The notes below the pieces were generated by a model. The model was not told the origin of the DNA. It did no database searches and saw nothing but the letters and a program-made list of their open reading frames with translations. Source: a virus. From it: 64,000 nucleotides of DNA. The DNA is taken from the IMG/VR virus record IMGVR_UViG_3300036939_000021, positions 32,001 to 96,000 of that record; one strand, 5' to 3'. Every line of letters begins with the position of its first letter. The first letter of the stretch is position 1. A program made the translations under genes and the position numbers. Positions 17,472-41,050 of the stretch are shown here, one piece after another.

Positions 17472-19400
17472 GTGGAAGTCTCAGAAAGTATGGAAGATTT
17501 TAAGAATAAAAACATCCCCGGAATAATCGAAGGTGCTGGTATTGGAGGTAAAGGAGGTGGCACTCCTGATCAAGATAGGATTTCTGGTACTTCTACAGCA
17601 TATGTATACGCTCTTTTTGGTATAGGTGAAGGCACTATTGAAGGTTTAAAAGCGGGTGCAAAGTCTATTCAACTTGATGGCACACCTATAGAGAATGCTG
17701 ATGGCACTAAAAATTTTAGTGATTTTAAATTTATATTTACTCCAGGTTTGCAAAGTCAAGCTAATATACCATCAGAAGCAAATGAAGTAAGTTCTGAATC
17801 TGCTGTAGGTGTAGAAGTTCTAAAATTATTTCCTGTAACTCGACAAATAACAAATCCAGATATTAATGGTATTCGTATAAGACTCGGTTTTCAATTACAA
17901 GAACAAGAAAAAGAAAGTGGTGATATTAATTCTTTAGCTTGTAATTTTGCAATATATATAAAAGAAGGTAATGGTGCTTTTGTAGAAAGATTAGCTTATA
18001 GAAATAATGAGTTTAAATACCGTTTTACAAGTCTTACAGAATTTACTTATTTTTTTCCTGTTAATTCACAAATAACAGATACCTTTCAAATAAAAGTTGA
18101 AAAAATTTCAGAAGATGCTGTAGATAATGAAGATGTTGTACAGCAACGTACTGTAAGGTGGCAAGCATATGCAGAAGTTATTCAAGATACATTAGAGTAT
18201 CCTTGGACTGCATTATGTTATATGCAATTTCCAGGAAATGCCTTTAAAAGTGTCCCAACACGTAAATATTTAGTTGGGGGTATAAAGTGGCTTATTCCGA
18301 CGGTATTTACTGTAGGTGCTGATAGAGGATTAGATTATAACGGTCAAGCTTGGGGTGGAGGTTTTTACGAACCTGATAAAGCACCAGCTGATGCTGCTTG
18401 GGTAGTATGGGGATTGCTTACAAATAATAGATATGGTTTAGGAAGAAAAATAGCAGGTCGTTTAGGATTAGGTAGAGGATTACAAGAATCTGACATAGAT
18501 AAATTTGCGCTGTATCAGTGTTCTTTGCATAACAACGGTATTATTCCAGACGGATTTGGAAATACTGAAAGACGTTATAGTGCTAACGGAATCTTACAAG
18601 GCTCTCAAGATGCTTGGGAGATGATACAGAGTGTTTGTAGTAATTTTGCTGCAAAAGCTTATTGGAATGGTTCACAGATAAGTTTTTGGCAAGATCGCCC
18701 TTGGATTGGATTACCAAGAGCTATTTTTACTAATGCAAAAGTTGTAGATGGAAGGTTTATATATACAAGTCAGGAATGGAAGGGAATTACAACAGTTGCA
18801 AAAGTAAGTTGGAATGATCCGGCTCAGGATTATGGCTTAGTCCCCGAACCTATAGAATATCAACAAGGTATTTTAGATTGGGGAGTACATGAAGATGAGT
18901 TTTCTGCTTTTCTCTGTACTTCTCGTGGTCAAGCTTATCGATTAGGTTTAAAAAATATTTTAACTTCTTTACTTGAGACTGAAATGGTAAGTTTTCGAGC
19001 ATTACCAGAATCTTTTTATTGCCGTCCTGGAGATGTAATTCAAGTTCAAGATAATCGTAGAACACAAACTAGAAAGGGTGGATTAATAACTTCTGCTACC
19101 ACAACTTCTATTACAGTAGATTTAAAAAATCCAGTAACTCTAGTCGGTACATCTCCATATAAAGTAAGAGTAACTTTACCCAATTTACAAGTAGAAGAAA
19201 GATTTATAAGTAATGGTGCTGGAACGCATTTAACTTTATTACCAACACAGCCTTTTAGTATGCCACCTCTTTCTCATGCAATTTGGTTAGTACAAGATGG
19301 AGCTGCTCTTGAGATGCTATATCGAATTATTTCTATAACTCCTGGTGAAGCAGAAAATAAAATGATTTATGAAATCAGCGCTAAAACTTATGCTGGTTAG
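17472..19400 (+). CDS. tail tip / host-specificity protein J, N-terminal part
   Basis: GEGTIEGL, LDGTPIEN.DG..NF, YPWTAL, NNRYGLG, IDKFALY, CTSRGQA.R.G, PGDVIQVQD; ends YEISAKTY before the fibronectin domains. Confidence 0.9.
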   Translation: MEVSESMEDFKNKNIPGIIEGAGIGGKGGGTPDQDRISGTSTAYVYALFGIGEGTIEGLKAGAKSIQLDGTPIENADGTKNFSDFKFIFTPGLQSQANIPSEANEVSSESAVGVEVLKLFPVTRQITNPDINGIRIRLGFQLQEQEKESGDINSLACNFAIYIKEGNGAFVERLAYRNNEFKYRFTSLTEFTYFFPVNSQITDTFQIKVEKISEDAVDNEDVVQQRTVRWQAYAEVIQDTLEYPWTALCYMQFPGNAFKSVPTRKYLVGGIKWLIPTVFTVGADRGLDYNGQAWGGGFYEPDKAPADAAWVVWGLLTNNRYGLGRKIAGRLGLGRGLQESDIDKFALYQCSLHNNGIIPDGFGNTERRYSANGILQGSQDAWEMIQSVCSNFAAKAYWNGSQISFWQDRPWIGLPRAIFTNAKVVDGRFIYTSQEWKGITTVAKVSWNDPAQDYGLVPEPIEYQQGILDWGVHEDEFSAFLCTSRGQAYRLGLKNILTSLLETEMVSFRALPESFYCRPGDVIQVQDNRRTQTRKGGLITSATTTSITVDLKNPVTLVGTSPYKVRVTLPNLQVEERFISNGAGTHLTLLPTQPFSMPPLSHAIWLVQDGAALEMLYRIISITPGEAENKMIYEISAKTYAG

Positions 19401-19699
19401 CTTAAAACATTATCTGGTAAACTTTTAGTTTTTATTTTAGGTATTGAAATTTTTTGATAGTCTTTTAATTGAGATAAAGCAAAAGATATATCTGAGTTAT
19501 TTGTAGTTTTAGGATTAATAAGATGTCCATACATATTATAACTTTCGGATAATTTTTCTAATAAATCTTCTTCTATTAAATTAGCAAGATAGTTATCAGG
19601 AGTTTCTACAAATATATCAATAGAAGTTTTTGTATCAGATTTGTCGTTATCTGTTAATAATCTAATTGAGATATTGTCTTGTTTTATTATGAATTCCAT
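19397..19699 (-). CDS. hypothetical protein (candidate partner of the upstream peptidase)
   Basis: 100 aa acidic ORF 4 nt downstream of 19704..21185. Confidence 0.6.
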   Translation of the reverse strand: MEFIIKQDNISIRLLTDNDKSDTKTSIDIFVETPDNYLANLIEEDLLEKLSESYNMYGHLINPKTTNNSDISFALSQLKDYQKISIPKIKTKSLPDNVLS

Positions 19700-19703
19700 A
19701 AAA

Positions 19704-21185
19704 TTAGTTATTTAAGAGATGTCCTAAAACTAAATTAAAATGTTCAGGATCTTTATTATATAAAGATCTCATAGTTTGTGGTGAATGGAAATGTTCCATA
19801 CCAACTGCGTGTACTTCGGTAGCTTCAACGTCTGAAGTATAAACTCTTCCTACATAAGGAGTTATATAATTACCTCTATAAGCTATTTCATCATTTCTAT
19901 ATTTGCTACTATTAGTTATATCATTAAGTTTTTCTGCATTTTGAGTTAGACTTCTCTCTTCTCGCCATTTTTCATTTGCTCTTAATATATTTTTATTTTC
20001 AGTTTCAGCATGATGGGATACTTCATGCCATAAAGCATAAGATGGGGCATTTTTACCAACTTCAATTAATTTTTTATTTTTATCGGCATAGGCTCTGTCG
20101 CCCTCTGCTTTAATTGATTGAAGTAGAGATTGACCTTTACCGCCTGTGTGATAATAATAGTCAGTTAGATCATCTAAAACTCTTTGTTTAATTTGAGGAT
20201 CTTTAATATCTATATCTACTTTTTCTGCTAAAGCTCTGGCTTCTTGTTTTGATAAAGGAGTAGATTTGCCTAAATCTTCTCTTAAATTTATAAAAGCTTG
20301 CTCTTGTTCTTTTTTTAATTTTTCTTGTTCTTGCTGTAAATTTTCTATATTTTTTTGTATATTTTTACGATCTTTAACAGATGCTTTAGGTAGACGCTTT
20401 TTTTCGTTTCTTAATTTAATACTAATATCTACTAATTTTTTTCCATGATCTTTAATACTATCTAAATGTTTATTAGATAAAGTAGCACCAATACTAATAA
20501 TTTCTTTTGGTGATGATTTTATCGATTTAGAAGAAGACTCTAGAGAAACTTCAACAGCTTTTTTAATTTCTGTTTTTTGTCTTTTGGGTATTTCATCGTT
20601 ATTTAGTAATTTACTGACTTTTTCTTTTAATACTGTTTTTTTCGTTTTACTAGGAAGTTCATCAGCAAATAAGGTTTTTTTAACATCTTTAACGTCTTGA
20701 GCTATAGGTTTACCTATTTTAGATATTTCATCTAATTTACTTTTTAAAGTATCTAATTTTGTTTTTTGTTTTAATATAGACGACGTTTCAGGCTTAGGAT
20801 GTGTTTTAGTAGAAGTTGTAGGAAGTATAGATTTTTTGGATCTAGCTTCTTCTATAGCTTCACGCCAACTATCAGTTTTTCTACCATCTTTAGCTTTAAC
20901 ACCATATTCAGCAGCAACTTTTTTAAGAGTTGCTAATTTCATTCCTTTTAAATCATTATCAGCATTATTAGAAGAAACTGTAGAAGTTTTAGAAGTAGTA
21001 TTTTTTGTAGTAGATGCTTTAGTTTCAGTTTTTTTAGTAGATTTAGTTGTACTTTTTTTTGTTTTATCTCCTCCTTTAGGCATAAACTGACCACCTAAAG
21101 GATGTCCTGGAGGATAACGAGGATGCTCACTCTCTTTAAAAGAACTTGCTATTTTCTTTCTTGTTGATCCTAATTTTGTAGGCAT
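19704..21185 (-). CDS. putative virion-packaged protein with C-terminal zincin metallopeptidase
   Basis: N-terminal FKESEHPR...GGQF motif, Rho_N-like helix pair, HEVSH (HExxH) plus downstream EVHAVGME. Confidence 0.65.
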   Translation of the reverse strand: MPTKLGSTRKKIASSFKESEHPRYPPGHPLGGQFMPKGGDKTKKSTTKSTKKTETKASTTKNTTSKTSTVSSNNADNDLKGMKLATLKKVAAEYGVKAKDGRKTDSWREAIEEARSKKSILPTTSTKTHPKPETSSILKQKTKLDTLKSKLDEISKIGKPIAQDVKDVKKTLFADELPSKTKKTVLKEKVSKLLNNDEIPKRQKTEIKKAVEVSLESSSKSIKSSPKEIISIGATLSNKHLDSIKDHGKKLVDISIKLRNEKKRLPKASVKDRKNIQKNIENLQQEQEKLKKEQEQAFINLREDLGKSTPLSKQEARALAEKVDIDIKDPQIKQRVLDDLTDYYYHTGGKGQSLLQSIKAEGDRAYADKNKKLIEVGKNAPSYALWHEVSHHAETENKNILRANEKWREERSLTQNAEKLNDITNSSKYRNDEIAYRGNYITPYVGRVYTSDVEATEVHAVGMEHFHSPQTMRSLYNKDPEHFNLVLGHLLNN

Positions 21186-21250: not shown

Positions 21251-22099
21251 ATGGCACTTGATCCAGAAGTATTAGCAGCTATTCAAGAAACTGTCAAGGA
21301 ATCTTTTACTGAGTTTAATTCTACTATAGAATCTAAATTTCGTGAATTAACAAGAAAACAAGACTCAATAAAAAAAGATTTTACAAATATTATTGATACA
21401 CAACTTAATGAACGCTTTGACAGTATTACTCCGAATCTAGCATTTATTGAAGATGTAAGAAAAGAGTATGAAGAGGAAATTAGACAAAATCAGTATAATC
21501 CTGAACCTGAAGTAGAAATTGAAGAAGGTAATAAAAATAACAAACGTTCTAAAGGTAAGCGAGATGTTGTGGAAGAAACCACACTTTTAGAACAAAAATT
21601 AAGAGCAGAGTTCGAGGCTAAATTGATCGAAGATCGTAAACGTGTTACAGAACTTGAAACACAACTTAAAGCCGATCAAGAAAAAACTAGAGAAGAACAA
21701 GAAAAAGCACGTCTTACCAGTTTACGTAATGATGCTCTAAACACTATTCGAGAAATGGGTTTAGTTTCTCCAGGTAAAGAGAATCGTTTGTTTACTCTTT
21801 TAGAGCAAGACGGCAGACTTGTAAAAACAGAAGAAGGTTTTAAGATTGCGGCTAAAGATAAATTTGGTGATGATGTTCAATTAGCTATTTCAGAGCAATT
21901 ACCTGAATTAATTAAAACATCATATGATGAATATTCAATACCTAGAGGTGGAACAGGTACGGGAGGAGTAAACACACCACGGAATAATAATGTACCCACT
22001 CAGGATTTCTCAGGATTGACCGCACAACAAATTTACGAACAAAAAAATTTGCTTGGTGCTGATTTGATTAAAACTCTTGAACAAAATTACTCTGTGTAA
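21251..22099 (+). CDS. capsid scaffolding protein
   Basis: Acidic coiled coil with a GGTGTGG tail, directly upstream of the capsid gene. Confidence 0.8.
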   Translation: MALDPEVLAAIQETVKESFTEFNSTIESKFRELTRKQDSIKKDFTNIIDTQLNERFDSITPNLAFIEDVRKEYEEEIRQNQYNPEPEVEIEEGNKNNKRSKGKRDVVEETTLLEQKLRAEFEAKLIEDRKRVTELETQLKADQEKTREEQEKARLTSLRNDALNTIREMGLVSPGKENRLFTLLEQDGRLVKTEEGFKIAAKDKFGDDVQLAISEQLPELIKTSYDEYSIPRGGTGTGGVNTPRNNNVPTQDFSGLTAQQIYEQKNLLGADLIKTLEQNYSV

Positions 22100-22104
22100 T
22101 TTTT

Positions 22105-22117
22105 GTGGAACATTGTA
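22105..22117 (+). promoter_or_regulatory. putative late promoter GTGGAACATTGTA
   Basis: 25 nt upstream of the capsid ATG. Confidence 0.7.
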
Positions 22118-22142
22118 ATTAAAGGAATATTATTAAAAAATA

Positions 22143-23507
22143 ATGCCACCTACACAAACTCCTAATGCTGGTGCATTGCTTGAGACGGCTATTGCATCAG
22201 CAGCATTAACACAACTTAATCATGTTGCTATATATCCTCGTGTTGCGACTCGTGACTATGAACTGGGAGCATTTGCAAGAGGAAATGTAGTTAGGATTAG
22301 ACGCCCTAAGCGTAGACGTGCTGTAGATTTAGATCCTCGTACTGGTGGATTTAATTTTACAGAAGCAGAATTCTTTTCTGGGGAAGTAAAGCTAGAGCGT
22401 TTGTGGACTGACGGATTTTTGATGTATGGTCATGATTCACAGCAAACAATGGCTTTATATTTGGCTGAAACTGCTAGTCAAATTTCTGATGCTATCATTA
22501 CACCGAATGATGAGTATCTTTATACAAAATTTAGAGATTGGAGTCCCTTCGCTAGTGTTTTAAGCACGGGTGCTTATGCGCTTGGTGATACTCCACCATT
22601 TAATATTTCTTTTTGTATAAAAGATGATGGCACTCTTACAGAATTTAATAATGAAGGACTAAGAGGTGCTAGTGTTTTCTTAGATAAAGAAAATGCAGGT
22701 AATGATCGTTATGCTGTGATCTCTAGTTCTGCTAAAGGTGCTTTTCTTGGAGATAGTATAGCAATCGAAGGATCTAAAGTTGAAGCGGAAAAAGATCCAC
22801 TCTCTCAATTAATTATTGCTGGTATCAGACAAGGGCAATTTGTTGAGAGATATGGATTTAGACTTGCAGGATCTAATACCGTAGGTGGTCAAACAGGTAC
22901 ACCTGATTTAGATACAGTCGCAGGAATTCAGGGGACTTTACCTATTAGTGCTAGTGCTGCGAATACTCAGTTATCGTATGCTGATTTTAGTTCTACCTAT
23001 GGTGTAGGTTCTTTGATTGGTGCCGTAGATATTACTCTGACAGCCGGAACGGCTTTACCTCCAAGTATTGCAGTAGGTAAAATTGCTAGACTTGCACCAG
23101 GAACACCCAATAAGAGTAACGTATTTTATGGTGTTATTCTACGAGTAAATCTTACAACACCAACAGCACCTATTGTAACGATGGTTCCATATAAATGGAA
23201 TGGTCAAAAAATTCCTGCAACGGGAATTATTCCAGGTACTTACGTATTTAGCGTTCCTGACATTCCTAGCGTAAATACTGTAAACACTACTGAAGGTTTG
23301 TTGATGGCAAATCGTTTCTTACGTGAGCCACGTTTAGGAAGTGGAGCGGTTGCAGCAAGTATCCGTGACCCTCAGACTAATAATGTAATTCAAGTCTTTA
23401 CAGGGAATTATGACTTGGGTACTGTGAGCGAAAAGAATGCAGCTTATATGCTAACAGGTGCTAAAATTTCTGATTGTCGTAAGACTGGTTTGATTCTTTC
23501 ACTATAG
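22143..23507 (+). CDS. major capsid protein (P22 coat-like)
   Basis: RDYE...GNVVRIRRP N-terminal signature; follows the scaffold gene. Confidence 0.85.
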   Translation: MPPTQTPNAGALLETAIASAALTQLNHVAIYPRVATRDYELGAFARGNVVRIRRPKRRRAVDLDPRTGGFNFTEAEFFSGEVKLERLWTDGFLMYGHDSQQTMALYLAETASQISDAIITPNDEYLYTKFRDWSPFASVLSTGAYALGDTPPFNISFCIKDDGTLTEFNNEGLRGASVFLDKENAGNDRYAVISSSAKGAFLGDSIAIEGSKVEAEKDPLSQLIIAGIRQGQFVERYGFRLAGSNTVGGQTGTPDLDTVAGIQGTLPISASAANTQLSYADFSSTYGVGSLIGAVDITLTAGTALPPSIAVGKIARLAPGTPNKSNVFYGVILRVNLTTPTAPIVTMVPYKWNGQKIPATGIIPGTYVFSVPDIPSVNTVNTTEGLLMANRFLREPRLGSGAVAASIRDPQTNNVIQVFTGNYDLGTVSEKNAAYMLTGAKISDCRKTGLILSL

Positions 23508-23523
23508 GATTTTAATAATAAAA

Positions 23524-24099
23524 ATGCCTGAATACGAATATACTTTGATGTATGAACCCCGTAATGGGACACCTGTTTCGGTTCCATCTGCTGAGGTTCA
23601 AGCAAGGCTTAATGAAGGTTTTAGAACAGCTAAACCTGATGAAGATACGGTTTTAAAACCTGGTACAGGAATAGCAAGAGTAGATATTTCTCCTAGTGCA
23701 ACTATTGCAGCTAGAGAAATGGTGCCTATTGAAATTAATGCAGCAACTCTTAAAGATTTACAAGTGCGTTTAGGTCTTTCTACTGCTTATGCAAAATTAG
23801 TAAAAGAAAAAAGACCTTACACCGATTTAGAGGATTTAATTGCAAAAGTCCCAGAGATTAACAACTGGGCTAATCTTGAACATATTATTAGCTTTAAGGA
23901 ACAAGAGCAACCTAAAGAGCTTGAGCAAGAAAAGGCAGTAATCCCACAGATTACTCAAAATCAAGATTTAAGTCCTACAGGTACAGATAAAGCAACGCCT
24001 GTTGAAGGTGAACTGAAAGTACTTTCAACAAAAGAAAAACTTGAGACAGATACTCAACAAAAGCTAGAAGCTAAACCAGAAGAAAAATCGAAGAAATAA
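23524..24099 (+). CDS. helix-hairpin-helix (ComEA/HHH_3-like) domain protein
   Basis: IEINAATLKDLQ..LGL....AK.....RPYTDLEDL. Confidence 0.7.
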   Translation: MPEYEYTLMYEPRNGTPVSVPSAEVQARLNEGFRTAKPDEDTVLKPGTGIARVDISPSATIAAREMVPIEINAATLKDLQVRLGLSTAYAKLVKEKRPYTDLEDLIAKVPEINNWANLEHIISFKEQEQPKELEQEKAVIPQITQNQDLSPTGTDKATPVEGELKVLSTKEKLETDTQQKLEAKPEEKSKK

Positions 24100-24104
24100 G
24101 TATT

Positions 24105-24476
24105 ATGGCATTGTCTGAGCGTTCAGTATCTCTATTACATGAAATATATGAGATTACGACAATGCCTAACACGGTTTTTGCCGGAGGTGAAGGTACATCT
24201 CGTTTAGTACCAGATTTATTTAATGCTGGTTTGAGTGTTAGAGAACAACTTGAAAAAGCAATAGAGCAAATAAATCAGAATCCTTCTGTTATTACTAGAA
24301 TTGAAGAAATTCTAGCAGAATGGGAAGAGTTATCTATTGACCCTAGTAAAATAGAACAAGAGGGTTATTTTTTAAAACCCGAAAAAAATATAAAAGCAAT
24401 AAGAAAAAGACTCTACACATACACTGGAATAATATTTTCTGGTGATATTTCTTTTAATAGAATACCGTTAGGTTAA
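24105..24476 (+). CDS. putative head-tail connector
   Basis: 123 aa helical protein after the capsid locus. Confidence 0.45.
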   Translation: MALSERSVSLLHEIYEITTMPNTVFAGGEGTSRLVPDLFNAGLSVREQLEKAIEQINQNPSVITRIEEILAEWEELSIDPSKIEQEGYFLKPEKNIKAIRKRLYTYTGIIFSGDISFNRIPLG

Positions 24477-24488
24477 AGGAAGATATTA

Positions 24489-27146
24489 ATGCCTTTACCT
24501 ACAACAGCTAAAAAAGGTACTACATTTAACTTTGAAATAGTGGCAGTGTTAGATAAAGATTATCCTAACGCTATTTTAGTTTATTATGGTGAAGCTACAG
24601 AATATAATCATAAAAAACGTGAAACATTTACTTTAGGTTCTGTACCTAATCAAGGTATTACATTAAAATCAAAAGTTCAATCTTTAGGGCAATATACTTA
24701 TATCTGGAAAGTTGAAATAGTTGATAGCATTACTTCTAATTTAACAAAAACAGAATTTCAAACTTACTGTAAAATATTTTTAGATCAATATCGTTCTATT
24801 GAGATTGAGCGACAAATTTTAACATTAGAAGATAGTAAACCTTATATCAATCCTTTTATTATTTTTGATGTCGTTGTTCCTGATGTTCCTATTAATCAAA
24901 ATCCTTTAATTTCTATTACATCGCCTATATCCGGTGTTTCAATTGTTGCAGGAACATTAATAACAATTACAGCACAAGCATCTGATTCAGATGGGACAGT
25001 AGCCAGTGTTAGTTTTTATGCTAATAATATTTTAATAGGAACCGATACAACATCACCCTATTTTATACCTTGGACACCTACACAAGGAAATTATAATTTA
25101 ACTGCTAGAGCAACAGACGATAAAGGTGCTATAACAACTTCTGCTATTATTCCGGTTGTTGTTTCTGCTTCTTCTACTCCGACACCTACAGAGCCTATTT
25201 TAAGAAGTGAAGCAAATTTATTAGGAATAAATATTCCTGCAATGGGGGATTATTTTGCACCATATTTTAGAGATGCTGCAAGACAGTCACGACCCTATGA
25301 GGCAATAGGGGGAGGAGTTATAGCAAAAAATGCTAATGGTTATCCGACTGTTGCAAACTTTCAAGTTTATATATGGGCAGGAGGATATAAAAGACATGGA
25401 ACATATTTTATAGAAATATTACATTCAGATTCTTATTCTGGTGAAGGTATTTTAGATAGATTAGGTGGAGAGTTATCTAATATTATTTACGATATAAATA
25501 TTAATAAAACTACAGCAACTTGGATACATACAAATCCTGATGAATCTGTAGGAATGTTAATATTTCAAGGATTTACTGGAGGGATAACACATTTAAAAGT
25601 TTTGCGTCCTTCAAGTTCGGGTAGTAATATACCTTACGATGAATCTAAGATTTTTATGGATTCTATCGTAGATATTATGGGTAAGTTTGATGGAGCAAGA
25701 TTTTTAGATACAACGGGCGTAAATAGTTCTAGTATTCGTACTTGGAATCAAAGAACTTTAATTACCGATTATTCGCAAGCTAGAGATCAAGGAGAACCTG
25801 AATCAGGTTTTGGATTTGCTGGACGTGGATTAGCTTGGGAATACGTTGCAGATTTAGCCAATGAAGTAAAAGCAAAATATCCAAGTTTTAAAGCAATATG
25901 GATAAATATTCCGGTACTTGCTGATAATGATTATGTACTACAGTTATTTACTTTATTAAAAACTAGATTAAACACCGGAATAATAGTACATTGCGAATTT
26001 GGTAATGAAAACTGGAATTATACAAGACCTTTTTTACACGCTGAATATAATAAAAATGAAGCAGTTTTAGATGCACAGAAACCAGGTAGTTTATTAGTTT
26101 TTGATGGAAATACTGGTGAGTACACATTATCTTGGAGAAGGCAAGCTTTAAGAACTATTGAATTTTATTCTATTGCTCAAACAGTATGGGGAGCTGATGT
26201 AGATAATAAAATTCAATTTCAACTTCAATGGCAACAAAGAAATGGGCAAAACACTGCTGGTGTGATGCTCTCTTTTGTTGATAAAGCTTTGAATGCTCTT
26301 GATATTATTGGAAAATTTGGTTTAGGTGGAAGTTGGTATTATAACCCTATTCATAACGATCCAAATTTAACTATAGATAATATTTGGAATTCAGGTACTA
26401 TGAATTCTGAAACATGGGCAAATGAATGGTTACAGACTGATGTAGATTGGGTTACCGCATATTCTAAACCTAATGGTTTTTTACAATGGAATGGGTATGA
26501 GGGTGGTACAAGTTTTGATAAAGTATTTGAAAGTTTAGAGACGACTAAAGAAGTTGCAGATAAAAATAATGCAATAATGAAACTTGCAAATTATGATTCC
26601 AGAATGACAACTAATCATGTAGAACATATAGATATGGGTTCAAAACATGGTCGTAACTGGAATTATTGTTATAAGTTAGGGGGTGCAAGAGAAAATCAAT
26701 ATGAATGGGCATATTTATATAATCACGATGACTTTAATACACCTAAAATCAATGCAATAGATATTCTTAGATCTAGAAACAGGGCTGCTTTAACATATGG
26801 TAGAATTGTACCTTTTATTATTAATGCTGGATTGTATTCTATCAACGACAAAGGATATGGTGATAGAATTGATGGTGATTATAAATTAGATGGTGAGGAA
26901 ACTGTTAGTTATACGTTTAGGGTAGTAACAGCAGGAAACTATACATTCAGTTTTGTTTCTAATGATACTAATAGTTATAAGATTTTATTTGGTACAACAG
27001 TTTTAAATAATAATATTAATGCATTAGCAAATCAGAGTATAGAACCTATTATTATTAATTGTCCAAATAGTGGATTATATGCAATTAGAATAAAAAATTT
27101 ATCAACAGGTCAAGCATATTTAAAAGAAATTTCTATACAGGTTTAA
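24489..27146 (+). CDS. Ig-like (Big_7) domain plus clan GH-A-like glycoside hydrolase
   Basis: ASDSDGTVASVSFY...ARATDDKG Ig domain; WINIP, EFGNENWN and YEGG motifs. Confidence 0.7.
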   Translation: MPLPTTAKKGTTFNFEIVAVLDKDYPNAILVYYGEATEYNHKKRETFTLGSVPNQGITLKSKVQSLGQYTYIWKVEIVDSITSNLTKTEFQTYCKIFLDQYRSIEIERQILTLEDSKPYINPFIIFDVVVPDVPINQNPLISITSPISGVSIVAGTLITITAQASDSDGTVASVSFYANNILIGTDTTSPYFIPWTPTQGNYNLTARATDDKGAITTSAIIPVVVSASSTPTPTEPILRSEANLLGINIPAMGDYFAPYFRDAARQSRPYEAIGGGVIAKNANGYPTVANFQVYIWAGGYKRHGTYFIEILHSDSYSGEGILDRLGGELSNIIYDININKTTATWIHTNPDESVGMLIFQGFTGGITHLKVLRPSSSGSNIPYDESKIFMDSIVDIMGKFDGARFLDTTGVNSSSIRTWNQRTLITDYSQARDQGEPESGFGFAGRGLAWEYVADLANEVKAKYPSFKAIWINIPVLADNDYVLQLFTLLKTRLNTGIIVHCEFGNENWNYTRPFLHAEYNKNEAVLDAQKPGSLLVFDGNTGEYTLSWRRQALRTIEFYSIAQTVWGADVDNKIQFQLQWQQRNGQNTAGVMLSFVDKALNALDIIGKFGLGGSWYYNPIHNDPNLTIDNIWNSGTMNSETWANEWLQTDVDWVTAYSKPNGFLQWNGYEGGTSFDKVFESLETTKEVADKNNAIMKLANYDSRMTTNHVEHIDMGSKHGRNWNYCYKLGGARENQYEWAYLYNHDDFNTPKINAIDILRSRNRAALTYGRIVPFIINAGLYSINDKGYGDRIDGDYKLDGEETVSYTFRVVTAGNYTFSFVSNDTNSYKILFGTTVLNNNINALANQSIEPIIINCPNSGLYAIRIKNLSTGQAYLKEISIQV

Positions 27147-27150
27147 ATTA

Positions 27151-28848
27151 ATGGTTATTCTATACAATAAACAAGGTATTTCGGTTGATGTTCCTGAAGG
27201 AGCGGTTGAACAGGCTTTAAATGAAGGTTTTACTAGAGATTTTCCTACTTTAGCTGTTTTAATAAAAAACTATAATCCTAATGTTAATCAGGATGAAATA
27301 CCTGTAGATATACAAGGAACGTTAAAACAAGTAGAATTTATTTTACAAAATCGTTCGGATACTGTTATTAATGTTCGTTATGGCGATACAGGTAGTGAAA
27401 CTAATATACCTGGAGGTGTACCTGCTAATGGTAAATTAAGATTTACTGCTTTTTCTGGTACAACACAAGTAAGTAGTTTACCTACGGTCTTAGTAACTTC
27501 TTCTGATTCTGATAATTTTGTAGAGTTAGAAAAATTTATTATATTTACAGCTACGCAACAAAAAAGTGGAACTATAACAAAAGTTGAGTTTTATTCTGGT
27601 GCAAGATTATTAGGTACTGTAGTATCAGCACCTTATACACTACAGCATACTTTTACAGCTACAGGAAAATATAAAATATACGCACGTTGTTATAGTGGTA
27701 CTGATTATACAACGAGTAATTTTTTAGATGTTTTTGCCATACCTAATAGAAGACAAGATCGAAATTTTACTCCTACCGTAACGCTAACAGCACCAAACAC
27801 CGGAATAATAAATCAAGCTGTTTTATTACAAGCGATTGCTACAGATTTAGATGGTACGGTTAATAAAGTTGAATTTTATTCTAATGATTTAAAAATAGGC
27901 GAAGATATAACAACACCATATTCTTTAAGTTATACTTTTGTTACTGGTGGAACTTATGTAGTAAAAGCAAGAGTTTATGATAATTTAGGTGCAACATCAG
28001 AATCTAATATTATACAGATTGTTATTTCAGCACCTTCTGTTCCTATTCCTACAATTTCTGTAACAGCACCAAGTACAGCTAATACAAATACCGCTCTTAC
28101 TTTAAATGCTACTGCAAGTATTACAGGAGATACGATAGCAGGTGTTCAATTTTTAGTAAATGGTATTAATCAAGGTAGTGCTGATACAACATCACCTTAT
28201 TCCATAAGTTGGACTCCTACCACACCGGGAAATTATACAATTACTGCTATTGCAACCGGAGTTTTAGGAGGTAGTGCTACAAGTGCAGGAGTAACGGTAA
28301 CGGTAACAACCCCAGCTGTACCAACTCCTACAATATCTATTGCTAATACAACACCAAAAGCAGGATTAATAAATGAAGTTTTTATAATAACCGCAACAGC
28401 AGCTTTAACAGGAGATACATTAACTTCTGTTCAATTTAGAGTTGATGGATCGAATATAGGAAGTCCGGATACAGTAGCACCTTATAGTTTAAGTCATACT
28501 TTTACAACAAAAGGTATTAAGCAATTATCAGCTATTGCTTTAGGTTCTCAAGGTGGAACAGCAACATCAGCTAACTACTCTATACAAATATTTGACTCAA
28601 AGGTCGTTGGTGGAGGTGCTGGTGCTGGTGGTGCTTCCTTAGGTGCTGATCCTGCCGATTTTATGTTATTTGACACTAATTTAGCTGGGGGCAATGCTTC
28701 AACTATGGCGATATTCGTAGGAGCAACACAAGTGGGGGCATTTAATTATGATGATACAAGTTATGCAGGTAAACCTTTTGCTTATTTTCATAATGCAACT
28801 AGCACTATGTACACAGGAACTATTCAACCTACTGTTAACTTTTCCTAA
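27151..28848 (+). CDS. multi-Ig-domain virion decoration protein
   Basis: Four Big_7-like repeats (V.FY/QF...G.D...PYS). Confidence 0.8.
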   Translation: MVILYNKQGISVDVPEGAVEQALNEGFTRDFPTLAVLIKNYNPNVNQDEIPVDIQGTLKQVEFILQNRSDTVINVRYGDTGSETNIPGGVPANGKLRFTAFSGTTQVSSLPTVLVTSSDSDNFVELEKFIIFTATQQKSGTITKVEFYSGARLLGTVVSAPYTLQHTFTATGKYKIYARCYSGTDYTTSNFLDVFAIPNRRQDRNFTPTVTLTAPNTGIINQAVLLQAIATDLDGTVNKVEFYSNDLKIGEDITTPYSLSYTFVTGGTYVVKARVYDNLGATSESNIIQIVISAPSVPIPTISVTAPSTANTNTALTLNATASITGDTIAGVQFLVNGINQGSADTTSPYSISWTPTTPGNYTITAIATGVLGGSATSAGVTVTVTTPAVPTPTISIANTTPKAGLINEVFIITATAALTGDTLTSVQFRVDGSNIGSPDTVAPYSLSHTFTTKGIKQLSAIALGSQGGTATSANYSIQIFDSKVVGGGAGAGGASLGADPADFMLFDTNLAGGNASTMAIFVGATQVGAFNYDDTSYAGKPFAYFHNATSTMYTGTIQPTVNFS

Positions 28849-29171
28849 TGGCAACTCTTACGGCTAACGCTCAAAGACTAGGAACTAATTATAAAAACGC
28901 TGCTTTTGTTTCTACTGGTAGTGTTTTTGCTGTAGGAACTACTACAGTTTTTATCAGAGAAGCTAACGGTACTTTAAGAAGTTGGCAAAATGGCAGAGCA
29001 TCTTTTTTGAATACCTTGCCTGGAACTAATAAAGATGAAATTCCAGCCTACACAGCTTTTCAAGTACTGCCAAGTCAGGAAATAATAACAGATGATAGTT
29101 TATTATCATTTGGAACCACCATTGCTACGGGTGGCGGCACGACTGTAAATGCTAACGGATTTATTCTCTAA
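28848..29171 (+). CDS. hypothetical virion protein
   Basis: Translationally coupled in the structural operon. Confidence 0.6.
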   Translation: MATLTANAQRLGTNYKNAAFVSTGSVFAVGTTTVFIREANGTLRSWQNGRASFLNTLPGTNKDEIPAYTAFQVLPSQEIITDDSLLSFGTTIATGGGTTVNANGFIL

Positions 29172-29173
29172 TC

Positions 29174-29902
29174 ATGACTCAAAATACTAGACCAGTTGAC
29201 GTTTCAGCAAATGGCAGCACTTCACAGGTTAATCTAATCGTAGATAGAAACGCATCAGGACACGAGGCAATGGGACGAGCGTTAGTTCACAACGAAAACC
29301 TGGTCAGTGCCGCAAATCCTTTGCCTATCACCAATGCAAGCTTGCCTAGTACATTAGGTGCTAAAATAGCTGCTCAAAGTTTTGCGGTAACTCTTTCTAC
29401 TGACGGTGCGTTTGCTACTGCTTTCGGTGCTGCGACTGACGCTGCGTCTGCAACAGATACGGGAAACACTGGATTTATATCGCTTTTTAAACGTTTGTTT
29501 TCCAAGCTCCCAGCTGCTTTGGTAAACAATAGATTTGCTGTAGATTCAGTTGTCCGTACTGCTGTAACAAATCCATTGCAATATGCCGCCATAGGTACTA
29601 GTGCAGGCGCAAATATTAAAAATACAACAGGCTCACTTTATTCGTTGTCTTGTTTGAATTCAAATGCAAGCACTCGCTATGTTCAGCTTTTTAATAAGAA
29701 TACTGCTCCAGTGGCTAGTGATATACCGTTAGAAAGTTTTGCTGTCTACGGAAATGATGGTCAATTAGTGCTAGGTCAAGACTATTTTACGTTGAATGGT
29801 ATTGATTTTTCTACTGGTATTAGTTGGGGAATATCAACTACGCGTAACTTATATACAGCAGCTACAGCAGCAGATACTATTTTTACAGCGAGGTATTTAT
29901 GA
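29174..29902 (+). CDS. putative fibre/virion protein
   Basis: AATD...GFISLFKRL helix plus C-terminal beta domain (RYVQLFNK...FSTGISW). Confidence 0.6.
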   Translation: MTQNTRPVDVSANGSTSQVNLIVDRNASGHEAMGRALVHNENLVSAANPLPITNASLPSTLGAKIAAQSFAVTLSTDGAFATAFGAATDAASATDTGNTGFISLFKRLFSKLPAALVNNRFAVDSVVRTAVTNPLQYAAIGTSAGANIKNTTGSLYSLSCLNSNASTRYVQLFNKNTAPVASDIPLESFAVYGNDGQLVLGQDYFTLNGIDFSTGISWGISTTRNLYTAATAADTIFTARYL

Positions 29903-30768
29903 GCGGTTCTTTCCCTCCTCCATCTCTTGATCCTGTTGCTTTAACTTACGCGGCTCCTGGAACTTTTACTCTGACGATTCCTGCAAATGCAAAGTTGTTG
30001 CGCTTGATTGCAATAGCTTCCGGTAGTGGCGGTGCTAGCGGTCGTAGAGGTGCAGCGGGTACAGCCAGATTCGGTGGTGGTTCCGGTGCTTCTGGAAACA
30101 CTTCTGACGTAACCTATTCAGTCTCCTCTTTGGAATCCAGGATTCTCACAATTACTGTTCCTGCTGGTGGTGTTGGAGGAGCTGCTGTAACAACAGATGA
30201 TACTAATGGTGCTAATAGCGTAGCTGGAAGTTCTGCTTTTGTGACTATACCTGAACGAACTCTAATAGCCGCCAGTGGTAACGGGTTAGCGTCTGGTGGT
30301 ACTAACGCCGCTGGTGCGGGTGCGAGTATGTTCGCAGCCACTCAGCCCGGTACATTTTCAGGAGTGGCAGGAGTTTCAGCAATTGTCAATGGTACATCTA
30401 CGACAGGGCTATCTAATGCAAACGGCGCTGCTTCTGGTGGTGCCGGGGGGGGGATCGATGCAAGTAATGTCGTCAGAGCTGGAGGAAACGGAGGACTAGG
30501 TGGAAGAACTAATGCTCGGTCGTTAGCCGATGCTGGCAGTGGTGGTGCGATAGATACACCTGGAACTTCAGCAGGTGTACGACAGCCCGGAAATCTCGGA
30601 GGTTCTGGTGGTGGTGGCGGTGGGGCAAGTATCACTGCTGCTGGCGGCAATGGCGGTGACGGAATACTAGGTGGTGGCGGTGGCGGTGGCGGTGCCTCTG
30701 CTAACGGATTCAATTCTGGTGCTGGCGGTAAGGGTGGAGACGGAGCTGTGTATATTTACTACTGGTAA
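29899..30768 (+). CDS. glycine-rich fibre protein
   Basis: GSGGASG...GGGGGGG...GGKGGDGAVYIYYW; high GC. Confidence 0.75.
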   Translation: MSGSFPPPSLDPVALTYAAPGTFTLTIPANAKLLRLIAIASGSGGASGRRGAAGTARFGGGSGASGNTSDVTYSVSSLESRILTITVPAGGVGGAAVTTDDTNGANSVAGSSAFVTIPERTLIAASGNGLASGGTNAAGAGASMFAATQPGTFSGVAGVSAIVNGTSTTGLSNANGAASGGAGGGIDASNVVRAGGNGGLGGRTNARSLADAGSGGAIDTPGTSAGVRQPGNLGGSGGGGGGASITAAGGNGGDGILGGGGGGGGASANGFNSGAGGKGGDGAVYIYYW

Positions 30769-30774
30769 CAAATT

Positions 30775-32697
30775 ATGAGTGGATCGTTTAGTTCGCCTTC
30801 AACAGCATCAGCAGGGTCTACTAACTTTAAACAACCGCAAACAGGAACTATTACTAGAACCCTGTCTGCGAAATTAGCTGAAAGCGTAAGTGTTAAAGAC
30901 TTCGGGGCTGTAGGCAATAATATTGCTGATGATACCGCAGCTATTCAAGCAGCTATTGATGCCGTTAAAAATACGGGAGTAAAACTTGTTATTCCCGCTG
31001 GAAACTACAAAATTACCGATACCATCAAGATTGGATACGGAAATAGCCAATATGTAGCTATCCATATTGAAGGTGCCGGACGGAATCAAGACTTTGGTAC
31101 GTGTCGATTTATTGCAACCTTCAATGATAGACCCGCAATTAATATCCAGGGAGCTAGAGGGGTAACACTTTCTGGAATATCTGTAAAAGGTGTAAATGTT
31201 GCCCCAGAGTCAAGAAGTGATTTTCTAACTAATCCTGACTATCTCGACTGGATAACGGCAGGTTGCACTTTTGGCACTTACAACCCTTATTGTGGGATTG
31301 CTATTGACGCTTACTCAGGTGCCGATCCTGGAGCAGGCATTGATTATCCTAACGATCCTTACGGACGTTTTCACACAAGTAGAGTAACTGTCAAAGAGGT
31401 TGAGGTTCGTAACTTTGTTGTAGGATATTGTGTCAAACCAGCGAATGACGACAACAACGCCGAGGATATTGCCTTTAGAGATTGTGTGGCAAAGGGATGT
31501 ACATTTGGTTTGACAACAGGAGGAAAACAAAACAAAGGAATTAGCTATACCGATGGAGCGATGATTAATTGCTTCTGTGCTTATTCTGGCTTGCGCTATG
31601 GCAAACAAAATGGTTCAATCCCCAGATTATTTAATTTAGATATTGTAGTATGCCATCGGATTCTAGAAGTTGCACATACTGTATACTCAGGTTCTATAAC
31701 AGGACTGTATTGTGAAAATATCTGTGAACTAGGGTATTTTGGAAGTGGTTATGCTAGCGCTAGCAATACTCTGTCTATAACAGGCTGTACATTCAACAGA
31801 ACAGAATACAATAGTGGGGTTTTCGCAGCTTTCTACATGAACGTAGCTTTTCATGGCTGTTCATTTCAAGCTGCCGATCCCGAAGGTGTAATCAACTTTT
31901 ATCTTGACCCTTTAAACGTATATATCGCTTTTAATAACTGTACTTTTGGTCACACTCAAGGAAACGCAAATACTAAGCGTGTTGTCTATTCCGGCACCAA
32001 TCAACTGAGTATGGCTCAAGGGTGCAAGATGATTTATGGCTCACAATTTCTTTGTGACAACACCTTGCGCTTATCAAGTATTCCGAATAGACAAATTATT
32101 TACGAAACTATTTGGGAACTAGTCACAAGGACAACTACAACCACAAATAGATATAAGATTACTCGTGGCTTCACTCCTACGGTATTTTTTGGAGATGCAC
32201 GAAGCATTTCTGCTGACAAAACAACTGTAACTATTACGGCAAGTAGCGGTAGCTTTCCCTCTTACATGATTGGCGATTTTATTCTTTGGAACATCAAAGT
32301 TAAAAGCCCTGTAGGGACTCTTGTTAACTGGTTGGCTCCAGCTTTTAAAGTATCTGCAATAGATACGGGGACACTTACCGTCACAGCAACTTGTTTTATT
32401 TTGCCTGCAAATATCAGCGACACAGTTCCTAGTAATACCGTGTTATATAGAGAAACGTTTTTTAATGCAACCCTTTCAACTGCGACTGTGACAGCTGGCA
32501 GCAATGTTCTTACGAGTGTTACTGGTTTAGCCACAAACTTTCAACCAGGAGACTGGATAAGGGGAACGGGTTTACCAGGCTCTACAAGAGTAGTCAGTGT
32601 TGATTCTTCAGCAGGAACACTGACTATGAATGTTAACGCTACAGCTAGCGGGACTGGAGTCACAATTGACAATTCTACAGTAACTTTAACTAATTAA
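30775..32697 (+). CDS. tailspike / pectate-lyase-like beta-helix depolymerase
   Basis: SVKDFGAVGN..DDTAAIQAAID...IPAGNYKIT. Confidence 0.82.
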   Translation: MSGSFSSPSTASAGSTNFKQPQTGTITRTLSAKLAESVSVKDFGAVGNNIADDTAAIQAAIDAVKNTGVKLVIPAGNYKITDTIKIGYGNSQYVAIHIEGAGRNQDFGTCRFIATFNDRPAINIQGARGVTLSGISVKGVNVAPESRSDFLTNPDYLDWITAGCTFGTYNPYCGIAIDAYSGADPGAGIDYPNDPYGRFHTSRVTVKEVEVRNFVVGYCVKPANDDNNAEDIAFRDCVAKGCTFGLTTGGKQNKGISYTDGAMINCFCAYSGLRYGKQNGSIPRLFNLDIVVCHRILEVAHTVYSGSITGLYCENICELGYFGSGYASASNTLSITGCTFNRTEYNSGVFAAFYMNVAFHGCSFQAADPEGVINFYLDPLNVYIAFNNCTFGHTQGNANTKRVVYSGTNQLSMAQGCKMIYGSQFLCDNTLRLSSIPNRQIIYETIWELVTRTTTTTNRYKITRGFTPTVFFGDARSISADKTTVTITASSGSFPSYMIGDFILWNIKVKSPVGTLVNWLAPAFKVSAIDTGTLTVTATCFILPANISDTVPSNTVLYRETFFNATLSTATVTAGSNVLTSVTGLATNFQPGDWIRGTGLPGSTRVVSVDSSAGTLTMNVNATASGTGVTIDNSTVTLTN

Positions 32698-32710
32698 AAA
32701 TATAGATCAA

Positions 32711-32911
32711 ATGGCATGATTAGCTAAATTTGATAATACCGAAAAAATATTATATTTTCGAGAAAGTTCTAATTTGCCTTGGAGAGTATATAACACAACA
32801 CCTTATGCAACTCTTGGTTATAAAATTTCAAAAGGTTCTAAAGGTTGGACAACATACCAAAAGCTAAAAAAACTTAATTGGAAATTAATAGCAACCGAAA
32901 AAATAGAATAA
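32711..32911 (+). pseudogene. small cyanobacterial-type conserved hypothetical gene with TGA at codon 3
   Basis: MA*LAKFD...LYFR...PWR.Y...GSKGWTTYQKL.K..WKLI. Confidence 0.5.
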
Positions 32912-32922
32912 GAAATTAAAAA

Positions 32923-33270
32923 TTATATTCCTGTATAATTCCGATGGGAATGTTCTAGTTTTAACGAAAGTTTCCAAATATCGGAAGCATCCCAACTCCA
33001 AGAACGCTCTATAACTTTATAGAGTCTAGCCTCAAACCAAAACGGTTTTCCGGCACGTTCTTTTAAAAAATTATCTATTGCTGTCTTGTCAGTAAAAGAT
33101 TTTATTGTTAGATTTAACGACCAATCATCATCTACTGTATTTATTGCTGTTAAATTTGAGCGTGTCTCAATACCTCCATTACGTCTAGAAGATTGCACAT
33201 CCAAGGAATAATTTTGAGAATCACCAAAGCTACGTTTTAGGGCTGTAGGTGCGAAAGGATAAGTAGACAT
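32923..33270 (-). CDS. minor tail (distal tail, gpM-like) protein
   Basis: GGIETR...INT..DDWSL...IDNFLKERAGKPFWF. Confidence 0.75.
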   Translation of the reverse strand: MSTYPFAPTALKRSFGDSQNYSLDVQSSRRNGGIETRSNLTAINTVDDDWSLNLTIKSFTDKTAIDNFLKERAGKPFWFEARLYKVIERSWSWDASDIWKLSLKLEHSHRNYTGI

Positions 33271-33330
33271 ACAAAAAAGAAGCTAGATTTTTTAAGTCTA
33301 GCTTCTTTTTTATTCCGGGGGGATTGAATT

Positions 33331-33567
33331 TTAGCCTTGTTCTATAAGTCTAATCATGTAATTCATTGCTTTCCATGCTTTTTCGTTACGGGCATCTAGA
33401 AAGCAATTTTGAAAAATAATTTTTTGCTCTTGTGTCAGATTGTTTGTATTAATTCTTTGACTAATAAAAATTTGAAGATCTCTAGCTGTTTTGAGTTTTT
33501 TATTAAAATATTTTTCAACTAAAGTTAAAGTCTCTTGTCTAGCTACTCTTAGATTTTTAGAAGTCAT
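33331..33567 (-). CDS. hypothetical protein (moron between two gpM-like genes)
   Basis: Own promoter module at 33568-33632 and terminator at ~33273-33311. Confidence 0.7.
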   Translation of the reverse strand: MTSKNLRVARQETLTLVEKYFNKKLKTARDLQIFISQRINTNNLTQEQKIIFQNCFLDARNEKAWKAMNYMIRLIEQG

Positions 33568-33632
33568 TTTTCTTAGTCCTTAGCTTTTTTTTCCGACTCC
33601 TATATCATAACTAAAATCTAAGATGTTGTCAA
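33568..33632 (-). promoter_or_regulatory. repeated early promoter/RBS module
   Basis: Reverse complement TTGACAACATCTTAGATTTTAGTTATGATATAGGAGTCGGAAAAAAAAGCTAAGGA. Confidence 0.85.
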
Positions 33633-33682
33633 GCATATAGTAAAAATAAATTTTAAAGAAAAGCACACACCGGAATAATAAA

Positions 33683-34012
33683 TTATCTTGCTTCTTGGAT
33701 ACTCAGTGATATTTTCCATAATCCGGGTGATTCTTCTACAGTATTAAAATTAGAACACCAAAAATTTTTAAGAGGCATAAAATTATAGGGACGCCATTGA
33801 AAAGGGATTACACCAGCATGATTTTCTATAAATAATATATAAGTTTCAATTTCTAAATCAGATAAACCATTACATGAAAGACTCCATTCTTCACGTTCAC
33901 TATCTGTAACAGTAATATCTAAACTATAGCCATCACCTAATTTTATTCGATTACTTACTGGTTTATTAGTTTGAGAAAATCCCCAATTAGGAGAAAGTAC
34001 AAGTTCAGTCAT
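33683..34012 (-). CDS. minor tail protein gpM-like
   Basis: P.WG.S....P...IKLGDGY...FIENHAGVIPFQWRP. Confidence 0.82.
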   Translation of the reverse strand: MTELVLSPNWGFSQTNKPVSNRIKLGDGYSLDITVTDSEREEWSLSCNGLSDLEIETYILFIENHAGVIPFQWRPYNFMPLKNFWCSNFNTVEESPGLWKISLSIQEAR

Positions 34013-34017
34013 AATTT

Positions 34018-34671
34018 TTAATCATATCGTCTAACTCCAGGGAATCCTCCATAACGTCTAACATGACCATGATAAAGTTTACACATATCTAAATCATGAC
34101 GACATTCTCTGATTCCATTACTTGTTACTTGTCCAGCAAGATTATAATTAATATCTAATCGTGCTTGACAGTTTCCATCATCATATGTAGAAGTTCTAAG
34201 AATCCATTGACAACGTCTAAAGTAGCCTCTAGCTGGTACAGTTAAGCGTTGAAAATCCATTCCACCTATACAGTCAAATTCGATTTGTACTTGTGGTTCC
34301 CAAGTACGTTGATTTATTATTAGTTTTAAATCTCCTTGAAATTGTGTAGGATCGCTTGTAATTTGATTATCAAGGTAAGCTTTCCAAGTACGTTTTACAC
34401 TTAAAATAGTGCCTATAAATCCCCCCATACTTTGAATGAGTCCACCAAGATAACCTGATTCATCGGATACTGTTAATTTAGATCCAGGTACAGCACCATC
34501 AGCCGTTAAACCTGTCCAGTTAAAACTTATAGGTACTGGTTCGTATTCTTGACCATTAAAACTTACTCCGGCAATATTACAGAAAAAGATAGTTTGATTT
34601 CTTCCATTAATTTGAAAAAGATCTATACCATCCTCTAAGTCCAGTCCTTGTACATCTTCAATAATCGGCAT
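34018..34671 (-). CDS. minor tail protein gpL-like
   Basis: FNGQEYEPVPI...KRTWKAYLD...CQW...C...C.H....C...YGGFPG. Confidence 0.88.
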   Translation of the reverse strand: MPIIEDVQGLDLEDGIDLFQINGRNQTIFFCNIAGVSFNGQEYEPVPISFNWTGLTADGAVPGSKLTVSDESGYLGGLIQSMGGFIGTILSVKRTWKAYLDNQITSDPTQFQGDLKLIINQRTWEPQVQIEFDCIGGMDFQRLTVPARGYFRRCQWILRTSTYDDGNCQARLDINYNLAGQVTSNGIRECRHDLDMCKLYHGHVRRYGGFPGVRRYD

Positions 34672-34676
34672 AATCT

Positions 34677-35132
34677 ATGAATAAATATGAAATGTTAGAT
34701 AATGTTCAAGATCGAATTACTCATTATAGAGAAATAAGTAAACCTCCTGTAATAGTACCATCACCTAGAAATATAAGACTTAATATTATTTCTATAAAAA
34801 TAGAAGAAAATTATACCTATACTTTAGAAGTTCTTTGGGGAAAACCTTTAAAACATGATAATACTACAGAAGATTATATTTCTAGTTATATTGTAGAAAT
34901 ATCAAAAAATGGAAACAATTATAGTAATAGGCAAGAGATTGAGGAAAACTCTCAACGAATAGCACGATTTGAAAATATGATGATTGGTGACTATAAAGCT
35001 CGTGTAGCTGCTGTTGTAGCGACTTCAGACAAAATGAGTAGTTGGGAATATTCTAAAACACTTTTTAATCACTTTCCTAATAATGCCAGATTAAATTATA
35101 ATAATCCAGATACATATTGGTGGGAATTATAA
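34677..35132 (+). CDS. fibronectin-III protein; C-terminal part of split tail tip J
   Basis: NKYEMLDN...PSPRNIRL...LWGKP...YIVE...GDYKARVAAV...SSW. Confidence 0.7.
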   Translation: MNKYEMLDNVQDRITHYREISKPPVIVPSPRNIRLNIISIKIEENYTYTLEVLWGKPLKHDNTTEDYISSYIVEISKNGNNYSNRQEIEENSQRIARFENMMIGDYKARVAAVVATSDKMSSWEYSKTLFNHFPNNARLNYNNPDTYWWEL

Positions 35133-41025: not shown

Positions 41026-41050
41026 TGCTAAAACTTTTTTATATATGCTC

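Follow-up and report, generated by a model that had tools for sequence, protein, structure and literature searches.

The locus

The viral DNA analysed here, called the window in the following, is a stretch of 64,000 nucleotides that corresponds to bases 32001-96000 of the IMG/VR record IMGVR_UViG_3300036939_000021. The record comprises 105,884 bases with direct terminal repeats, was rated complete and has a guanine plus cytosine (G+C) content of 32.6%. In the window, the tail-tip protein J, known from phage lambda as gpJ, is encoded by two genes, one for the hub and one for a stand-alone fibronectin type III (FN3) protein. The split is a settled one, neither damage nor an assembly error, since related phages carry the same break. 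In all likelihood, it goes back to a fixed fission of a lambda-J-type tail-tip protein at the start of the linker connecting hub domain HDIV to the first FN3 domain, with the FN3 protein presumably docking on the hub. The two genes are:

17472..19400, plus strand: J hub gene, hub domains HDII to HDIV with an FNIII-A insertion (PF24801, PF13550, PHROG 31)
34677..35132, plus strand: stand-alone linker and FN3 protein, 151 amino acids (PHROG 31, fused homologue P0128, T1 J, AlphaFold2/Foldseek)

The hub gene (+) is followed by 15 kb of other sequence and then by M (-), L (-), FN3 (+), a gene for a protein of 314 amino acids (+), K (+), I (+) and the portal gene (+). All of the tail partner genes M, L, K and I are thus present in the genome; the contiguous same-strand order M-L-K-I-J has not been kept. 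The sequence-only reading that preceded this analysis had described two open reading frames (ORFs) as parts of a J protein split about 15 kb apart. Both ORFs exist, each intact and in a single copy in the genome, and on PHROG 31 ('central tail fiber J') they span positions 253-841 (hub, E 5e-136) and 855-957 (FN3, E 2.3e-7).

Counted from GTG 17472, which had been taken as the start codon, the hub ORF has 642 amino acids, while its recorded form (P0003) has 636 and begins at ATG 17490. The latter is probably the true start, so that of the original description of this gene the start would fall, whereas hub identity and C-terminus stand. The protein ends in ...IYEISAKTYAG, followed by TAG at 19398-19400, right after the last hub strand and at the point where the linker between hub and FN3 begins. 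A search for a decayed FN3 remnant behind the hub gene found none. Pfam comparisons yielded PF24801 (FNIII-A_GpJ; E 2.5e-19, 70.1 bits, cut-off 27) and PF13550 (Phage-tail_3; E 2.9e-19, 70 bits, cut-off 23). Residues 23-623 of the hub are colinear with residues 2-577 of lambda gpJ (8iyk_J), hub residues 40-640 with residues 27-599 of the J-like protein of T1 (9l9p_S), and residues 18-590 of the F2 pyocin fibre (25vf_A) are likewise colinear with the hub. Every sequence test applied places the hub in the gpJ family.

The FN3 gene starts with ATG 34677 (MNKYEMLDN...). Its product consists of an N-terminal helix with the motif KY[DE]x[IL][ED], a proline-rich loop, the FN3 sandwich and a C-terminal tail of about 25 amino acids. 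Pfam FN3 models gave no match to it at E <= 0.01. The prediction that it forms a fibronectin-III domain was nevertheless confirmed by modelling: AlphaFold2 placed a seven-strand beta-sandwich at about residues 28-130, with a predicted local distance difference test (pLDDT) score of about 90, behind a short helix and a loop, and a Foldseek search with this model retrieved the tail tip of T1 as best match, followed by many classical FN3 domains (probability 1.00). Stand-alone homologues (P0123-P0125) have nearly the same size (150-151 amino acids). The core residues of the domain, the linker motif and the proline-rich loop are conserved across stand-alone forms, fused forms and T1 J, and this conservation between free and fused proteins argues for a retained function. 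At positions 34669-34679, the start codons of gpL (-) and FN3 (+) are only 5 nt apart (CAT aatct ATG), so the promoter and ribosome-binding region of each gene must lie inside the coding sequence of the other.

Adjacent coverage of undivided J proteins

If the two ORFs are parts of one protein, they should align next to each other, without overlap, on undivided homologues. This was found in three cases. On the fused homologue P0128 (765 amino acids), hub residues 32-640 align with 34-616 and residues 2-127 of the FN3 protein with 619-740. On the J-like protein of T1 (9l9p_S), the hub covers 27-599 and the FN3 family profile 602-716, and on the F2 pyocin fibre (25vf_A) the respective segments are 18-590 and 596-708. 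In addition, a fragment of a fused protein (P0126, 215 amino acids) matches the window both at 19191-19397 (E 6e-14) and at 34716-35045 (E 2e-20). The break contains no extra residues, as hub residue 640 corresponds to position 616 and FN3 residue 2 to position 619 of P0128. Combined, the two ORFs account for the fused protein without remainder, and the break consequently carries neither intein nor intron sequence.

The undivided J proteins of this clade are short (about 750-770 amino acids), the hub being followed by a single FN3 domain and some 25 amino acids of tail, which means that the two ORFs together amount to the whole protein. A C-terminal central fibre or receptor-binding domain is missing from J here, as it is in the fused relatives.

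Split and fused states among related phages

The annotated phages that match the hub best are CrV-01T and Cr-LKS4, siphoviruses of Cylindrospermopsis/Raphidiopsis with genomes of about 100 kb, and those hub homologues of the protein collection that carry a name are from Cyanobacteriota (Sphaerospermopsis, Leptothoe). From these matches, the host is probably a filamentous cyanobacterium. Several scans for close relatives of the phage were negative: a megablast comparison of positions 14-37 kb of the window with phage records gave none, scans of viral contigs with the hub and with the FN3 protein as single queries gave no matches, nor did a metagenome scan with a profile built from the closest hubs. 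When the FN3 protein and the 493-amino-acid protein encoded next to the hub gene were used as queries in word-based searches, each returned only itself. CrV-01T has about ten proteins in common with the window genome and the 103-kb phage G001 about 22. With so few shared proteins, these phages are too distant for rebuilding individual rearrangement steps.

The set of hub homologues comprised 121 proteins with lengths of 353-1124 amino acids. Twenty of them are hub-only proteins ending at exactly the position of the break in the window, and the six closest hubs (P0004-P0009; 67-80% identity), which stem from separate Logan and ENA assemblies, all belong to these. About half of the set (61/121) extends some 140-150 amino acids beyond the break, equivalent to a single FN3 domain with a short tail, and the remaining 40 are long and lambda-like. 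Many homologues of about 885-905 amino acids (P0016-P0044 and others; L002:19920-22574) contain Hint-type (intein-like) domains (PF07591, PF13403, PF01079), and at the matching site gp038, the hub protein of CrV-01T, has an insertion of about 180 amino acids. Inteins would be an unusual feature of a tail-tip hub.

The local gene order K-I-J...M-L was observed in 26 loci from viral contigs. Nine loci (L013, L015, L017, L018, L020, L024, L025, L027, L030) represent the fused state, a single reading frame ending in ...FTGEF. In the group of L005 and L026, the hub gene ends with TGA and the FN3 gene begins in another frame within ATGGTTGA, the two genes overlapping by 8 nt. This overlap may simply be the 1-nt frameshift that made the fission; programmed +1 frameshifting is unlikely because GGT-TGA is not accompanied by a slippery site. 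A one-base skip at the TGA of ATGGTTGA (L005:11780-11800, L026:1045-1065) restores a fused-like colinearity, giving ...TAKTYG-DFYALVET as compared to ...TAKTYSADYYTQIES in fused proteins. In the L005/L026 clade, there is also a domain of about 75 amino acids inserted into FN3.

In CrV-01T, which is an infectious isolate (PMC12481020), the hub gene (gp038) and a gene for a protein of 147 amino acids (gp039) are adjacent. The hub alignment ends 14 amino acids before the stop of gp038, and gp039 matched the FN3 profile with 95% probability (E 1.7e-8). In G001, whose hub is 47% identical to that of the window phage, the hub and FN3 genes lie 1.5 kb apart, separated by a KilA-N gene and small RHH-like accessory ORFs without an endonuclease. 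Judged from these sequences, the 15.3-kb spacing in the window is the extreme of a series that leads from fused genes via adjacent ones to genes 1.5 kb apart. The identical break residue in one sixth of the homologues (20/121), together with the fused, adjacent and 1.5-kb states of relatives, bears out the clean and fixed gene fission that had been proposed at the outset.

The undivided state was taken as ancestral because it prevails in the family and is found in lambda, T1 and the pyocins. On a FastTree phylogeny of 86 hub sequences, the hub-only label requires at least four state changes, all of them forced by well-supported branches, a count that is not firm since the tree is quick and unrooted. 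Its 86 sequences are the set of 121 without 34 of the long forms and without P0090, a partial sequence. The simplest reading of the compared sequences would be that several independent fissions occurred at one and the same linker, and their distribution indicates a fission that is older than the window phage.

Proposed explanation and alternatives

The fission that best accounts for the locus would have started from a single ancestral gene. Each half would have gained its own start and stop codons, upon which the junction became ordinary intergenic DNA, and insertions and rearrangements, common in this group of phages, would then have pushed the halves 15.3 kb apart. Together with gpL, gpI and gpM, the product of the hub gene would build the trimeric cone by which the tail tube is closed, and the 151-amino-acid gene would supply linker and FN3 domain on a polypeptide of their own. 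That both products assemble in trans is what we infer: the FN3 protein would dock non-covalently on the hub, its retained N-terminal linker serving as docking arm. The short helix and proline-rich loop of this linker would lie in a groove between hub subunits, like the covalent linker of T5 pb3 or lambda gpJ, and distal fibre or adaptor proteins encoded next door would be attached to the FN3 domain and the C-terminal tail behind it. In T5, the linker is located between neighbouring hub subunits, stabilises the closed cone and is pulled away upon receptor binding (PMC10038345), and the lambda linker behaves similarly (PMC11101478).

Several points weigh against this explanation. The FN3 protein diverges much faster than the hub, the best homologues showing 42% and 80% identity, respectively. 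There is no obvious ribosome-binding site before the FN3 start, which is 5 nt away from the divergent start of L, and scans for promoters and terminators around both genes performed no better than on shuffled sequence. Moreover, the signal for opening is proposed to pass through the covalent linker between HDIV and FN3 in T5 and lambda (PMC10038345, PMC11101478), and a non-covalent joint at this very place is therefore mechanistically awkward.

The faster divergence of the FN3 protein would also fit another explanation, namely that the two products went separate ways, the hub working alone and the FN3 protein having been co-opted, e.g., as an adaptor of the neighbouring fibre genes, or having become dispensable. 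The FN3 gene now heads a different string of genes (FN3, the 314-amino-acid repeat protein, K, I), and in phage tails immunoglobulin-like (Ig-like) and FN3 domains are often accessory adhesion modules (PMC10721106). We regard this as unlikely, however, as the FN3 gene was kept in all split lineages examined (CrV-01T, G001, L005 and the window phage), the free FN3 proteins have conserved the hub-proximal linker motif at their N-terminus, and among the complete genomes seen there was no hub homologue without an FN3 part.

It is very improbable that the separation results from a chimeric or mis-joined contig whose true ORFs are adjacent or fused. The record is metagenomic, and a distance of 15 kb was not seen in the other loci examined. 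Yet, besides the direct terminal repeats and the complete rating of the record, the FN3 protein and the 493-amino-acid neighbour of the hub are present on two contigs (105,884 and 105,898 bases, the latter from other sources; NCBI, JGI, Logan), and the hub-only ending recurs in the six close relatives from independent assemblies. Both junctions are compact and the genes intact: at one, the stop codons of the hub gene and the convergent 100-amino-acid gene overlap (TTAG, 19397-19400), and at the other, the start codons at 34671 and 34677 are separated by the 5 nt mentioned above. Since both the stop of the hub gene and the start of the FN3 gene are genuine codons, there would be two genes even if they were adjacent.

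Programmed rejoining, i.e., restoration of a single J by site-specific excision or inversion of the 15-kb segment, by RNA or protein splicing or by recoding, has precedents in the invertible tail-fibre segments of Mu and P1 and in the developmentally excised elements that interrupt genes of heterocyst-forming cyanobacteria, and filamentous cyanobacteria are the likely hosts here, but the chance that it operates at this locus is negligible: no serine or tyrosine recombinase was found (PF00239 Resolvase and PF00589 Phage_integrase were unmatched genome-wide, with positive controls), direct and inverted repeats are absent at 19400 and 34677, the halves are on the same strand and could not be joined by inversion, excision would delete M, L and the fibre block, neither half has intein or intron sequence at the break, and each has its own start and stop. 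The rejoining by DNA rearrangement that the sequence-only reading had considered is thus unsupported and largely refuted. The observation in that reading that the halves, if joined at their shared TATG, run straight into a stop codon was correct, the junction being ACT TAT GAA TAA (T-Y-E-stop), and it likewise speaks against rejoining.

Two further candidates were considered and not adopted. A homing endonuclease at the break gained no support from the 493-amino-acid neighbour, which showed a weak endonuclease VII-like PHROG match (E 1e-4) and no Pfam match. The motif GGAATAAT was considered as a recombination site; it is enriched, yet occurs at neither the hub nor the FN3 junction. It is present in 47 copies in the window, compared to 4.6 expected from shuffled sequences, is often extended to ACACCGGAATAATAA and is found inside as well as between genes.

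The spacer and neighbouring genes

The genes upstream of the hub, in the spacer and downstream of FN3 are as follows:

15961..17426, minus strand: two tandem major-tail-protein-like paralogues of 231 and 256 amino acids (weak PHROG 820), divergent from the hub gene over a 45-nt spacer
19397..21185, minus strand: two genes without assigned function, 100 and 493 amino acids, convergent on the hub gene (weak PHROG only)
21251..32697, plus strand: lineage-specific block of ten genes within the 15-kb spacer, with Ig-like (Big_7) proteins, a glycine-rich minor-tail-like protein and a pectate-lyase-like tailspike
32923..33270, minus strand: 'M2', a second, weaker gpM-like gene (PHROG 14, E 6e-5)
33683..34012, minus strand: gpM-like minor tail protein, 109 amino acids (PHROG 14, E 7.5e-12)
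34018..34671, minus strand: gpL-like tail-tip protein (PF05100, E 1.5e-18; PHROG 18)
35136..36080, plus strand: protein of 314 amino acids with five 26-amino-acid repeats NKDGDLLGVLRYI(A/S)NNL (78-nt tandem repeats at 35285-35650)
36074..36922, plus strand: gpK-like tail assembly protein with a JAB/MPN-like N-terminal and an NlpC/P60-like C-terminal part (homology, synteny)
37080..37649, plus strand: gpI-like tail assembly protein (PHROG 32, E 9e-24; synteny)

The 100- and 493-amino-acid genes at the hub side of the spacer had no match in Pfam, and a homologue search with the larger protein revealed nothing besides itself. For the ten-gene block, almost no homologues were detected in CrV-01T or G001. 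Within it, positions 28000-32700 form an island with 40-46% G+C, compared to 32% in the genome, that encodes the glycine-rich minor-tail-like protein (PF21722) and the pectate-lyase-like tailspike of 640 amino acids; judged by its composition and content, it is probably a recently acquired host-recognition cassette. M2 has a homologue in G001 (40850-41206, 36% identity) that directly follows the FN3 gene of this phage. The gpM-like protein encoded at 33683..34012 matched PF05939 with E 5.5e-9, slightly under the curated cut-off.

No family match was obtained for the 314-amino-acid repeat protein. The C-terminal third of this protein is 39% identical to the product of a G001 gene situated beside FN3 and M2, and it is a candidate for a distal fibre or adaptor partner of the FN3 protein. 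The gpK-like protein shows 30% identity (E 5e-31) to CrV-01T gp042 ('phage tail protein K') and 33-39% identity to the product of the gene upstream of I and J in at least 20 related loci; its match to Pfam Prok-JAB was weak (E 0.12). Directly after I, relatives have the hub gene, whereas the window phage has the portal gene. CrV-01T and G001 likewise have their tail genes dispersed, which indicates that rearrangement is habitual in this group of phages.

Some other tail genes were noted in the window. Both major-tail-protein-like paralogues at 15961-17426 match one and the same G001 gene of this type (33% and 43% identity), and the pair may be a duplicated tail tube protein. A protein of 1200 amino acids encoded at 41956-45558 (-) has a weak gpM-like segment, and a protein of G001 matches it from end to end with 40% identity. 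At 46325-52624 (+), a tape-measure-like protein of 2099 amino acids is encoded, compared to 4170 in G001 and about 4400 in CrV-01T, lengths that suggest very long tails in this group of phages, with the length varying.

Comparison with known systems

The hub is homologous over its whole length to lambda gpJ, T1 J and the F-type pyocin protein, and the 151-amino-acid protein is homologous to their linker and FNIII-1. In these systems, J is one chain of about 1130-1200 amino acids that also comprises FNIII-2, a helical shaft, the central fibre and the receptor-binding domain. By contrast, the chain of the window phage is cut before the linker, with the genes 15 kb apart, and a second FN3 domain is lacking as well as the distal parts, in the fused relatives of the clade too. 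Besides, the lambda gene order M-L-K-I-J is scrambled.

A tail-tip FN3 string that is spread over two non-covalently held polypeptides is also known from T5. There, pb3 corresponds to lambda gpL and gpI plus gpJ's N-terminal part (PMC10721106), and the FN3 string continues in a second protein, pb4, which is held by loop contacts alone; a long linker between HDIV and FN3 runs along the hub (PMC10038345). The position of the cut is different, though. According to the literature and to homology with lambda, on which this comparison is based, T5 is cut between the second and the third FN3 domain, so that the linker and two FN3 domains are covalently attached to the hub, whereas the cut in the window phage lies between the hub and the linker.

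A counterpart in culture is CrV-01T (MH636380), in which gp038 and gp039 show the same fission, a hub-only J 34% identical to the hub in the window and the FN3 protein of 147 amino acids. Genome size is similar and the tail genes are scattered likewise. The differences are that the two genes are adjacent with an overlap of 1 nt, that the hub has the insertion of about 180 amino acids described above, and that the number of shared proteins is low. Phage genes in two separately translated parts have also been described as 'genes in pieces' in T4-like phages (nrdA of Aeh1, gene 43 of phage 25, T4 genes 39/60), where the products of a divided essential gene reassemble (PMC2988022). There, the division goes along with insertions, either of a homing endonuclease or of short intercistronic sequence, and both parts remain near each other, while the spacer in the window consists of 15 kb of ordinary phage genes.

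Implications

The locus does not reveal a new kind of machine, as a partition of hub functions among polypeptides has already been documented (T5 pb3 versus lambda gpL, gpI and gpJ). For annotation, it means that hub-only 'J' proteins of about 610-640 amino acids in cyanophages are not truncated and that the FN3 partner should be sought elsewhere in the genome.

Tail-tip hubs close the tube of long-tailed phages and open it on receptor binding. Repeated evolutionary cuts at exactly the linker between hub and FN3, including that of the infectious phage CrV-01T, suggest that the covalent bond at this place is dispensable. The split phages, CrV-01T being cultured and the window phage having its halves 15 kb apart, are a ready system for tests on how the signal is passed. 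A further-reaching idea, which we put forward only tentatively and consider doubtful at present, is that the linker is a recurrently selected breakpoint which makes the linker-FN3 unit a freely exchangeable adaptor. If this were true, the distal parts for host recognition could be exchanged, or their regulation changed, without involving the conserved hub. The signal for tail opening would then have to cross a non-covalent joint, and these phages would provide a natural test of the model, developed for T5 and lambda, in which a pull on the covalent linker is the trigger.

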